NCBI RefSeq assembly: GCF_006345805.1
Contig: NC_043000.1
Location: forward strand, 62,620,001-62,684,000
Direction: 5' to 3'
Length of the DNA stretch: 64,000 bases
Source: Octopus sinensis
Lineage: Eukaryota
Positions 1-32,790 of this stretch are shown here, one piece after another. Below the pieces are notes generated by a model. That model saw nothing but the letters and a program-made list of their open reading frames with translations. It did not search any database and was not told the origin of the DNA. The translations under genes were made by a program, and so were the position numbers. How positions within the stretch are numbered: the stretch's first letter is position 1; each line of letters begins with the position of its first letter.

Positions 1-2045
1 GATAAAATCGTAGCGCACTCATTAGCAACAGATGTTAAAAACCGTTTTGAAATGCTCTCAGGGAACACTGGCGACATTGAAACACAATATAATAACTTCG
101 TTACAGCCACAGAAGATATTGCCCTTTCAAAACTACCAAAGAAGGAAAGAATAAAGCCCAGATCAATTCATGCAGATGATCGTGTGAGATAAGCAAGGAA
201 GCATCTAGAAAGATCGAAACTTAGACATGAACAGAGGCCTACTAAAAATAACTTCAAAGATGCTTCTAAAGCTCAAGGAACACAAGATGAGGCATATGCC
301 AATGTAGAAACAGATTACATTCTAGCTGAGATTAACAAAATTACAAAACTTGCATACTGCAAAGCAACATGCTGCAGTATGGGAATTAATAAACACTAAC
401 TGGAAGAAAATTTAAGCCCTCCCCACTTCAGGCTTAAAGGTTGTTCCTCTGAGAAGCGCAAGGCCAACTGGTTTGACCACTTTCAGAAACTTCTTGCAGA
501 AGCACCACAAACAAGCGGTCTTCCATTTCCTCTACACCAAATATTATTAGACATCAACACGGACCTTTTCACATTGGATGAGCTCAAAGTAGCTCTCAGT
601 AGTTTTGCTAACAATAAATCTCCAGGACTCGATAACATACCAACTTTACTGTAGAAATATCCAATATTTCATGAAACCTTACTAGGTTTCTGCAACGACA
701 CATATGCACATCAATTGCCTCCATCAGCTTGGTTAAAGAGCGAAATTGTCCCTGTCCCAAAACAATGGTGATCTAACAAGTGCAGCAAATTATAGAGGCA
801 TTACGTTGATCCCAATGGCAGCAAGAAGTTTTAAGAAACTTTTGCTTAATAGGAGTGTACCTATGCTTGATCCGCTTCGTAAGAATCAGAATGGATTTAG
901 AAGAGGCCGGTCAACAACTGCTCAAATTCTCTCCATCCGTCGCATACTGAAAGAAATGAAAGAGTTTAACAAGAGCATCTCAATCTGTTTTGTCGACTTT
1001 CGCAAAGCATTTGATTCCATCAGCAGAGATCTTATGTTTAAAATCCTTGCACTCTATGATATTCTTCCCAGGATTGTTGATGCTATCAGAGCGCTGTACA
1101 CAAACACCACTGCCACAGTTGTACCTCTTGATGAAGAGACTGATTTCTTTGAAGTTGAAGGAGGTGTTCTGCAGGGTGACACACTCGTTCCTTTCTTGTT
1201 CATCATTGTTCTCGTCTATGTTCTACGCATTTCCCTAGACGGTATGGAGGAAAAGGCACTCCTTTTGAAACGCCGTCAGAGCACTTGGCATTGTGCACAA
1301 TATTTGTCTGATCTTGACTTTGCTGACGATCTTGCCTTGATATCCCATTGTATTAAAGATGCAGAACCTTTGTTACAAGTACTGGAGAAAGCAGCAAACC
1401 AGGTCGGCCTTTACTGCAACGAGAGTAATACAGAGTTTATCACGACCTCCTCCAAGTTAACTGAACTTAAATCGTTCAATAATATATCAATCAAAAACGT
1501 TGACGACTTCAAATATCTTGGATCACACATAGTAGACTCCCAAAAGAACTTTCGCATCCGCAAAGCTCTTGCTTGGAATGCATGTAACAGACTTGATACG
1601 ATCTGGCACTCAGACCTTCCAACCACGTTAAAAGTTAAAATATTTAGAACACTGATTGAGATGGTCCTTCTCTGTGGATCAGAGACCTGGACCTTATCGG
1701 CTCTTAGAAAAACAACTAGATGGAACATATACCAAACTGCTCAGAAAGATACAGAACATCAGTTAGAGATCGCACCCAGCACTTAGTAAAATCTACGGAA
1801 ATCTGATACCAATATCCCTCAAGCTGAAGCAGAAATGGCTACAATTTGCTGGCTACTGTCATCAAGCAGTGAAAGAGGTTATCTCATCCCTGATCCTATG
1901 GCATCCCTCTGAAAGTGTTTTCTCCAGGAAACTGACATTCCCAGATACTATATATCGGGACTCAGTGCTGGATAGTAGATATCTGTGTGGAAAAGGATTG
2001 TCAATGGAGTTTTGACCAACTATAAGTTGGTCGAAGGATGATGTT
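1..2045 (+). mobile_element. Degenerate RTE-clade non-LTR retrotransposon (ORF2 region to 3' end), cut by window start
   Basis: KSPGLDNIP at ~616, RT ORF 746-1786, frameshifted C-terminus, short GATGATG tail at ~2037. Confidence 0.85.
746..1786 (+). pseudogene. Reverse transcriptase domain remnant of the RTE-like LINE
   Basis: Motifs NYRGITL, QNGFRRGRST, FVDFRKAFDSI, GVLQGDTL, LDFADDLAL, FKYLGS; stops and frameshifts on both sides. Confidence 0.9.
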
Positions 2046-14140: not shown

Positions 14141-15007
14141 TACGAGGTCTGCACAATAAGTGTCCAGGCTGTTGCCATAGTAACGAAGCTAAAGCACGCA
14201 GAGTGAAGCTGCTTGATACATATTTACCTTGAACTCTGGTGTGCATGCGCACTAAGTTTAAACGTACTAGCTTATTTCCGCTGTTTACAGCAGTGCTTCG
14301 AAGGAAGGTGTGTAGCGTGATATCGTCGCATTGATCATGACAGAGAAAGTTGTCATGGCGATACCTGCTCAGAGGCCTACCCAAAGCTGCAGAAAGTGTA
14401 TGGAAAGGAGTATATGAGGTTCACACAAGTGAACGAATGGTTCAGACGTTTCCAAGATGTCCGAAAAAATGTCGATATTGACGAACGTTCTGGGAGACCT
14501 GCAACCAGAAGAAATGAGAAAAATATCGCCGATGTGCGTGCAGCTGTGAAAGGAAATCTTCGAATTATCATCCGTGAGTTATCAGACGATGTGCAGATTA
14601 GTTACGGTTCAGTTCAGTCCATTATCACTGGAGATTTGGATATGAGACGCGTGTCTGCCAAGTTTGTGCCAAAACTGCTTTCAGCTGACCAAAAAGACAC
14701 ATGGCTTTCAGTTACACAATATCTCTTTGATTGTGTCGAGAACGGTAAAACTTTTTCAATTCTTTGCATAGCCCTCTGAGCAGGTATCACCAAGCTTTTG
14801 GTAAAATTTGATGCAGATTCTCTGCTCAACTTTCTCTGAAATAGTCAATGCTACACACCTTCCTTCGAAACACTGCTGTAAACAGCGAAATGTTAAAATT
14901 TGGTGTGCATGCATAGCAGAGTTCAAATCAATCAAGCCAATTTATTTCGCGTGCTTTAGCTTCGTTACTATGGCAACAGTCCAGGTACTTATCGATCAAA
15001 CCACGTA
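14141..15007 (+). mobile_element. Internally deleted mariner with ~75-bp TIRs
   Basis: TACG..CTGTTGCCATAGTAACGAAGCTAAAGCACGC inverted at both ends; ORF 14396-14779 is mariner HTH (EWFRRF, RSGRP, VSAKFVPKLL); no DDD domain. Confidence 0.9.
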
Positions 15008-19166: not shown

Positions 19167-20440
19167 GAATGTCCCAGAAAGATTTACCTACCATATTTTT
19201 GTAATTATTCATAATGTATATAAGGGAGAGCAATCAAACATCCTATATTATAAGAACAATATTTTAACAATCAGATTTCACAATGACCCGTTCTTGCTTT
19301 GATCATGGCCTGCAAACGAGTGATGACTGAAGTGTAACAGCACTGCACTTCTTCGTCAAATTTACGCCACACAGTAAGGTCTACTTTCAGATCCGCCACA
19401 TCTGAATATGAAATAGCTGTGATATCACTCTCTAAAACGGACCAAACAGAAAAGTCCATTGAATTGATGTCTGGGCTTGAAGGAGGCCAAATTTCTTGTC
19501 CCAAAAGCTGCAAATTTTCTCTCTGCGTCATTTATGCGTAAGATTCTAGGTGTGGGCTGGGGCACAGTCCCGAGTGAAGACATACCTATTTCCAAATGTT
19601 TCATTTAACCAAAGCAACACTCTTTCTTCCAACATTTTGACGTAAACTGTGCTATTCACATTAACACCTACGTAAATGATGATCAAAGGAGACTTGGATC
19701 CATCAGATGCTACGGTAGCCCACACCATAACCCCAGCTGGTTTCTGGCGACGAAAATGGGTTCGGCTCCCTTCAGGCAAGTCCTGAACATCAGTAGCGTA
19801 CAGCCTGTCGTTCAGCTTGCTCGTTACAGCCTCCACGGTGAAGATCTTCTCATAACTCCAAATGAAGATTTTGTTGTAATGCTGTTCATCTCCGTTAACA
19901 TCATTTTCCCCCTATCGAGCTGTTTTTTTTTATTCGAAGCTGCTGAAATTACTTGTTTGCTTTTTGTATACCTTTAGCCTGGGATCCCACTCTAGCAATC
20001 ATTGCATTGAAGATTTTGAAATATTAAATATTAAGCTCTCTTGTCACTTTTCGCATGTTTCGACGAAGATTCCTGTGAACTCTTTCACTGTGTCGATCAT
20101 AGGTTTGGTGCTGAAGTTCTTTTACGCCCTGGAAATGGCTTGCTTGATGTTATGCCAGATTGATTGTAACGTTTCTAGACATTATACACCGTCTTACAAC
20201 ACACATTGAGCTGTTTTGCAATATCATTGTTAGATTTCCTTGCTGATTTTAATGCAACAATTTGATCCCCTTTAATTCCGGAAGCCATATTTATTGACAA
20301 AACTATTATAGACAAACAAAACTATAAACACTTAAGGCTGAAACACACACGAATCACTGTGCACAATCAATCGCTGTGCTTCATCCAATAAATTTCAAGA
20401 ATTTTTTAAATCATCGATAAATACTTTCTGTGACATCCGG

Positions 20441-20477: not shown

Positions 20478-20540
20478 ATTATGGAGATGTACTTGCATAG
20501 CAAGTGACCTGATCTGAAATCGTGTGCTGAACCAAAATCA

Positions 20541-20764
20541 ATTGCTGCGTGGAAGGTGTTTATAAGCCATTTAAAACATACAAAAACTGTTAGATTCACT
20601 TCAACATTTAAATTTAATTTGCCAAAATTCCGTGCTGCATTTTGTCAGTGAACAGGTTGCGGTCTGAAAGCGACGAAAATATTTTAGCAAACTAAATTTA
20701 AATGTTGAATCTAACGGTTTTTGTGTGTTTTTAAATGGCTTATAAACACCTTCCACGCTGCAAT
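20541..20764. repeat. Foldback (inverted) pLTR-like repeat, ~80-bp arms
   Basis: 20541-20620 is the reverse complement of 20688-20764. Confidence 0.85.
20641..20691 (+). ncRNA. Minimal type I hammerhead ribozyme motif, G3-C8 core variant
   Basis: tttgtca-GTGAACA-g-gttgc(ggtctgaaa)gcgac-GAAA-atat-TT-tagcaaa. Confidence 0.65.
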
Positions 20765-32150: not shown

Positions 32151-32790
32151 TACATCATATGTAAACAAGCATAAGTGTTGAAATGTATTGTGGAACAAGT
32201 AGAAAAATATATTTTTCAATGCATAAATACTGATAGAACAACATATATAGGATAAAATCCTTTAAGAGCAGAAACATTTTTCAGCAACCAGCATTGAGTA
32301 TTGAACTCACACCCCTCTAATTTCCAATCAGAGTGCTCTACCTTCAAGCTAAACTGTTGTCTGACGAATTTTTCTGCAATTTTAGTTCGATCCTCATGGC
32401 TAGTTGTCGACAAATTTTTCTGCTCTTAAATGATTTTATCCTATATATGCTGTTGGTATCAGTATATACGTGTTGAAAAATATATCTTTCTACTTGTTCT
32501 ACGATACATTTCAATGCTTCAAAAGCAAAATTATGTTTGTTTACATATGACATAATTTATGACATCTAGCATTTCTGGATGACTTTATAGTTCTAAAATT
32601 GCAGTAGAATTCGTCAGTCAGCAGTATAGCTTAAAGGTAGAGCACTCTGACCGTAAATCAGAGGGCTGTGAGTTTGATCCTCATGGCTGGTTGCTGACAA
32701 ATTTTTCTGCTTTTAAAGGATTTTGTCCTATATTTGCTGTTCTGTCAGTATTTATGCATTGAAAAATATATCTTTCTACTTGTTTTATAT
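32150..32790. repeat. Inverted plus direct repeat cluster containing a tRNA-like pseudogene
   Basis: 32195-32385 is reverse complement of 32592-32785; partial direct copy 32385-32560; tRNA-like 32617-32691. Confidence 0.75.

Follow-up and report, generated by a model that had tools for sequence, protein, structure and literature searches.

Minimal hammerhead ribozymes of Penelope-like elements (PLEs) were described by Cervera and de la Pena in 2014 (PMC4209133), where, in the portion of the paper covered, the core pair between positions 3 and 8 occurs only as C3-G8 or U3-A8, and where an extra nucleotide separating position 9 from 10.1 is given as a trait of the Penelope minimal motif. The 3:8 pair is a core pair of the hammerhead catalytic fold and is known to covary naturally, the covered text of Perreault et al. 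(2011, PMC3088659) naming only U3-A8. The pairing G3-C8 is encountered as an engineered change: C3G/G8C partly restores cleavage, including that of a Penelope hammerhead dependent on its protein for cutting (PMC11167929, PMC8495972), and G3-C8 appears in PMC3884650 as an engineered change in a data-not-shown remark. G3-C8 thereby serves as proof-by-rescue of the hammerhead active fold. A natural G3-C8 hammerhead was not found in the text of the literature searched, including the covered portions of PMC6155905, PMC6765202, PMC7229834, PMC10085705 and PMC2377424. For the Anolis Poseidon element PAc (Frangieh et al. 2024, PMC11167929), uncut RNA was reported to be the template and insertion in vitro to proceed without cleavage, RNA-seq gave no reads with an end at the cut site according to the part of the paper covered, and the so-called tail corresponds to the stretch between two internal reverse transcription (RT) start sites. 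Inverted truncated PLE copies with a one-sided tail have likewise been described (Craig et al. 2021, PMC8557442).

Here, a window of 64,000 nucleotides from Octopus sinensis (contig NC_043000.1, positions 62,620,001 to 62,684,000) was analysed, which, judged from its sequence, is host to two inverted pseudo-LTR (pLTR) pieces, one of them tailed, of a Penelope-like retroelement. We consider it rather likely that this is a dead two-arm pLTR insertion, and that the hammerhead of the family, which carries G3-C8, still self-cleaves after U17 in intact elements. The 51-nt motif lies on the plus strand and begins with the 5' arm of stem I, TTTGTCA (20641-20647). The core GTGAACA follows at 20648-20654 (G3 at 20648, then U4, G5, A6, A7, C8 at 20653 and A9 at 20654), with an extra unpaired G (20655) in front of stem II. 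Stem II and its 9-nt loop span 20656-20674, the five pairs, one of them U-G in this copy, being formed by GTTGC (20656-20660) and GCGAC (20670-20674). The segment 20675-20684 comprises GAAA (20675-20678; G12, A13, A14, A15.1), the palindrome AATATT of helix III (20678-20683) and U17 (20684), after which the cut is predicted, and the 3' arm of stem I, TAGCAAA, closes the motif at 20685-20691. All letters of a type I minimal hammerhead (U4, G5, A6, A9, G12, A13, A14, A15.1, U16.1, H17) are thus present, while the canonical letters C3 and G8 are absent throughout the family and the Watson-Crick 3:8 pair is kept as G-C. Taken together, this supports the motif as a homologue of the type I minimal hammerhead with a family-wide G3-C8 pair. 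The initial annotation had read the core, stem II, the GAAA, the palindrome and the flaws of stem I in the same way, without mention of the extra G, and had placed the motif in the loop of a foldback. The latter holds only partly, as the right arm overlaps the cut site and the 3' arm of stem I.

A G3-C8 hammerhead descriptor matched the window once, at the motif, and gave two matches in 500 Markov control windows. An Rfam scan (E ≤ 1) returned no hammerhead family at the motif but a weak hairpin match alone, and published hammerhead descriptors use CUGANGA (PMC8557442, in part). Since standard searches thus miss G3-C8, genomic hammerhead counts are likely too low.

In stem I of the window copy, 20646/20686 is a C.A mismatch and 20645/20687 a U-G wobble. 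The mismatch is due to a private G-to-A change at 20686, which breaks the second pair, as the G is kept in the opposite arm of the same insertion (20619-20623) and, at position 1.2, in 79 of 85 sampled arms. With this G and the A at position 1.3, seen in 49 of these arms, the restored stem I predicted by the initial annotation is indeed the commonest form of the family. In intact copies, both stems are part of the minimum-energy structure (P of at least 0.99 for stem II and at least 0.92 for the five inner pairs of stem I). The same stems reach a P of only ~0.01 in the window copy, both alone and within the foldback, with penalties of 7.6 and 14.4 kcal/mol. This predicted failure to fold is attributed to the private change at 20686 and to the inverted arm, and makes the window copy, which is probably dead, the wrong substrate for a cleavage assay. 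Its core letters are all intact, as would be expected of an active or co-opted ribozyme at this locus, yet such a role is very improbable given the mismatch directly adjoining the cut site, the predicted loss of both stems and a divergence of ~10% from full-length copies; that the copy is decayed agrees with the initial annotation. In the energy model, a double-hammerhead dimer via the palindromic helix III is feasible but unfavoured, the forced dimer having -28.8 kcal/mol compared to -30.8 for two monomers and -32.7 for the best dimer.

The foldback around the motif, with inverted arms at 20541-20628 and 20681-20764, folds with a z of -18.8. On the minus strand, the ~60-nt Penelope tail (20478-20540), representing the long 3' end of the unit and present on this arm alone, shares 91% identity with the 5' pLTR/ORF start of the full-length copy L132; in full-length elements it encodes part of the ORF N-terminus. 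The adjoining inverted pLTR arm (20541-20628) begins shortly ahead of the cut site, ends at the short end and contains the ORF start codon (20570-20568), the frame of which is broken after 10 codons. At the junction (20629-20639), also read on the minus strand, comparison with other copies reveals that the pLTR leader is fused via a shared ATTTTG directly to the 3' arm of stem I, and hence the minus arm lacks a ribozyme core. A template jump of the RT is the likely origin of this junction, as far as its letters tell. The remainder of the plus arm (20692-20763) continues to the short end, with the ORF ATG at 20735. No clear target-site duplication was found for the window copy. The long inverted arms and the thousands of candidate copies in the genome would also suit a MITE or foldback DNA transposon in which a hammerhead-like loop arose by chance. 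This explanation can be given next to no probability: junctions vary between copies, arms are unequal, many copies are single, the copies do not show a fixed interior flanked by equal terminal inverted repeats, and the unit forms the end of an RT-encoding element, its link to an RT/GIY-YIG ORF refuting a DNA transposon. That ORF link, the inverted truncated copies known from PLEs and the one-sided tail instead lead to the two-arm pLTR insertion. In such an event, the protein of the element would nick AT-rich DNA on both strands, and two reverse transcriptions would start on uncut RNA at two internal sites, the short end and the tail end, both running towards the RNA 5' end; their products, joined head to head at microhomologies, would give the foldback. 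PAc resembles this arrangement in its two internal RT starts within the 5' end of the ORF, which generate the tail, as well as in AT-rich targets, cutting of both strands and an uncut RNA template (PMC11167929, in part). PAc differs in its C3-G8 pair, G3-C8 being only engineered there, in a tail of 30-40 nt compared to ~60 nt here, and in the position of its ATG at stem II instead of ~50 nt after the cut site. Elsewhere in the window, further repeat-like fragments were noticed at 737-1786 (+), presumably a LINE-type RT fragment, and at 14321-14779 (+) and 19546-19911 (-), which we take to be mariner-like, in addition to tRNA-like matches at 32286-32358 and 32620-32692.

Across the 2.72-Gb genome, 3,688 candidate copies of the element were counted. 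A 35-nt G3-C8 pattern gave 1,151 exact matches and none in the control. When positions 3 and 8 were left open, 999 matches resulted, the first 100 of which comprised 87 with G3-C8 and 13 single mismatches (counted by eye), with neither C3-G8 nor U3-A8 among them. In a sample of 88 arms, drawn by a pattern downstream of the ribozyme after 42 rows from the loci of one amplified composite had been dropped, 62 of 66 arms have G3 and 62 of 69 have C8. Frequent stem changes in the sampled arms are CpG decay, except for A to G at position 1.3 (34 of 85 arms), where a wobble is retained. At positions 3 and 8, contigs from four runs (organisms A-D) list no variant reaching 4%. Copies consist of a ~215-nt unit with two alternative 3' ends ~60 nt apart and reside in AT-rich or (TA)n DNA, either single or as inverted pairs with variable junctions; the long end is joined to the short end in 45 of 48 inverted entries, in which overlapping loci may have been counted twice. 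In one locus (L034), ~110 nt of unrelated GC-rich sequence separate the two arms. A fixed-junction inverted pair was seen amplified within a larger repeat of at least 1.4 kb (L031, L061, L065 and about one third of the sampled arms). Close tandem pattern matches on C2 and C1 were rejected as full elements, representing a larger composite repeat with one inverted pair.

Several of these traits are shared with the PLE minimal hammerheads of PMC4209133 (as covered), i.e. location in the pLTR, the extra nucleotide between 9 and 10.1, G10.1-C11.1, a tiny palindromic helix III, and thousands of single copies besides pairs on opposite strands. In contrast to those, the present family has G3-C8 and a stem I of 7 bp instead of 4-5 bp. 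Non-LTR retrozymes (PMC7229834; bioRxiv 10.64898/2026.07.22.740005; both in part) are similar as short non-coding, PLE-tied hammerhead units, and a few head-to-tail arrays exist here as well, whereas the window copy consists of two inverted pieces with a single core, and the cut site marks neither the start nor the end of copies. At 3 of 20 ORF-linked loci, monomers that each hold a hammerhead follow one another head to tail, an arrangement that the window copy lacks; in these (L126:974-3177, L128:2555-3098 and L137:2396-3050, oriented), retrozyme-like arrays of short units are separated by (TA)n, with a core in each unit.

The coding element was traced through the long-end pattern, as 20 of its 22 matches continue into one common sequence. 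Two copies (L118, L132) have the order pLTR-ORF-pLTR with the ORF starting at the ATG within the unit, and another (L258) holds an open frame of 1,042 aa. Among the 30 best endonuclease copies, 26 have the unit within 1.5 kb downstream; it is absent from the 30 best PF01541 loci, and one of 20 wider loci has an unlinked single copy. The ORF encodes a telomerase-like RT, judged from Foldseek ranks 1-5, all TERT, and from RT motifs read in the sequence; its similarity to another PLE ORF is weak (E 6e-10). A GIY-YIG motif was read at the C-terminus, which shares 53% identity with a domain from a family of which one member passes PF01541. Pfam searches of the ORF itself yielded no RT or GIY-YIG match, and a PDB sequence search of the ORF yielded none. 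As in endonuclease-bearing (EN+) PLEs, the pLTRs are arranged in tandem or inverted, and a tail occurs on one side. Further agreement with Neptune/Nematis-type EN+ PLEs (Craig et al. 2021, PMC8557442, in part) includes the C-terminal GIY-YIG, the CX3CxxC linker, CCHH, (TA)n targets, inverted 5'-truncated copies and the one-sided tail. The linker appears Nematis-like by eye, and the tree used here was built without reference proteins of the Neptune, Nematis, Poseidon and Hydra clades. As in Nematis, linker spacing is short, while ~60 extra RT residues between motifs A and B distinguish the present ORF, a feature on which the covered text makes no statement for canonical elements. These residues (~280-350 of P0001) are well folded in the model and sit at the place of the telomerase insertion-in-fingers domain. 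Among named proteins, the ORF comes closest to one from Octopus vulgaris, whose C-terminal part is family-3-like by eye.

Family 3 is one of two sister families in the same genome, both 52-54% identical to the ORF of the window family (family 1) over ~420 residues and 59-60% identical to each other. The three families form one clade (support 100/100), with family 1 as sister to families 2 and 3. Read behind the endonuclease, the core pair is G3-C8 in 27/27 cores of family 1 (from 23 of 30 loci); at the same place, it is U3-A8 in 18/18 cores of family 2 (18 of 30 loci) and C3-G8 in 25/26 cores of family 3 (20 of 24 loci). Hence, judged by sequence comparison, the 3:8 pair naturally covaries in three sister families as G-C, U-A and C-G, as it does among natural core variants (PMC3088659). 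In an alignment of 10 natural copies, six of 11 named pairs change on both sides, namely two pairs in each of stems I and II, 15.2-16.2 and 3:8, and 99% of cells pair compared to 30-48% in slid controls; as these copies represent three lineages instead of ten independent ones and the structure was chosen from the same sequences, the figures are not probabilities. U4, G5, A6, G12-A15.1 and U16.1 are invariant across the three families. Family 3 (L306:975-1024 (-) and 19 other loci) combines canonical C3-G8 with a C at position 9 and has a non-palindromic helix III of 2 bp. A PLE family with a 781-aa ORF (L099:918, 1583, 6851, 7518) carries in each pLTR a U3-A8-type motif and, ~665 nt further on, a canonical C3-G8 motif, and several other PLE families have U3-A8-like cores.

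Since two related families carry the other two pairings, G3-C8 is likely a working natural variant, and the family motif is, by prediction, probably active. Preservation of this core pair in three forms suggests selection on the catalytic fold. Cleavage in intact elements would probably be slow, with the RNA acting as a dimer or together with the protein of the element. Located upstream of both RT start sites and ~60 nt downstream of the point where copies usually begin at the 5' end, the cut would trim the leader or release unit-length RNA from tandem transcripts, while not every insertion would require it. Against activity, none of 96 sampled arms (61 without the amplified composite) starts at the cut site, the nearest start being 3 nt upstream, and most extend 45-64 nt further upstream than the cut site, which argues for uncut RNA as template. 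Moreover, the 3:8 pair is lost in 7 of 31 cores from ORF-linked loci, with some of the losses recurring among the copies of a single locus; RNA with a broken pair may thus still have served as template. Both observations fit the PAc result, yet they also permit a non-cutting role. The motif could accordingly descend from a hammerhead, cut no longer, and be retained for its fold as an RNA signal in protein binding, splicing or translation control. Uncut templates, the C in place of the expected A9 in family 3, the recurrence of pair-broken cores near ORFs and the normal insertion of dead mutants in vitro (PMC11167929) all suit such a signal. We nonetheless deem it unlikely, as it would leave unexplained why the 3:8 pair, a part of the catalytic fold (PMC3088659), is Watson-Crick in three forms in three families, and why the core letters listed above remain invariant.

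What is new here is the natural high-copy G3-C8 family, as far as the searched literature reaches, minimal PLE hammerheads and natural U3-A8 having already been published (PMC4209133, PMC3088659). The statement in the initial annotation that G3-C8 is known mainly as an engineered rescue agrees with the papers found, which contain engineered changes only, whereas in this genome the pair is natural and family-wide. Its presence beside U-A and C-G sisters provides evolutionary support for selection on the pair in Penelope elements. A further-reaching proposal, which at present appears somewhat unlikely, is that one small retroelement clade in one genome fixed all three working 3:8 versions, the slower ones having been favoured because the elements copy uncut RNA, with cutting taking place late or only in the own protein complex. 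To our knowledge, no job has been assigned to the ribozyme of Penelope elements. Should the proposal be true, the trio would offer a natural series in which to study the purpose of Penelope hammerheads.

Some minor features concern the 5' end of the unit. In L052 and L258, a long-range stem is predicted to be closed by pairing of this end with the short RT start site. Upstream of the unit in L118 and L132, branch-point, pyrimidine and AG signals occur just before the usual 5' end of copies; additionally, L132 has a donor-like site 215-350 nt upstream, and GAG or TG precedes the usual 5' end in 13 of 22 arms. A leader-splice junction pattern gave 76 matches compared to 12 in the control, mostly in other repeats, with a 9-nt candidate-exon match in two. 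These signals are only suggestive of a spliced leader; alternatively, a cap-derived extra G may be involved.
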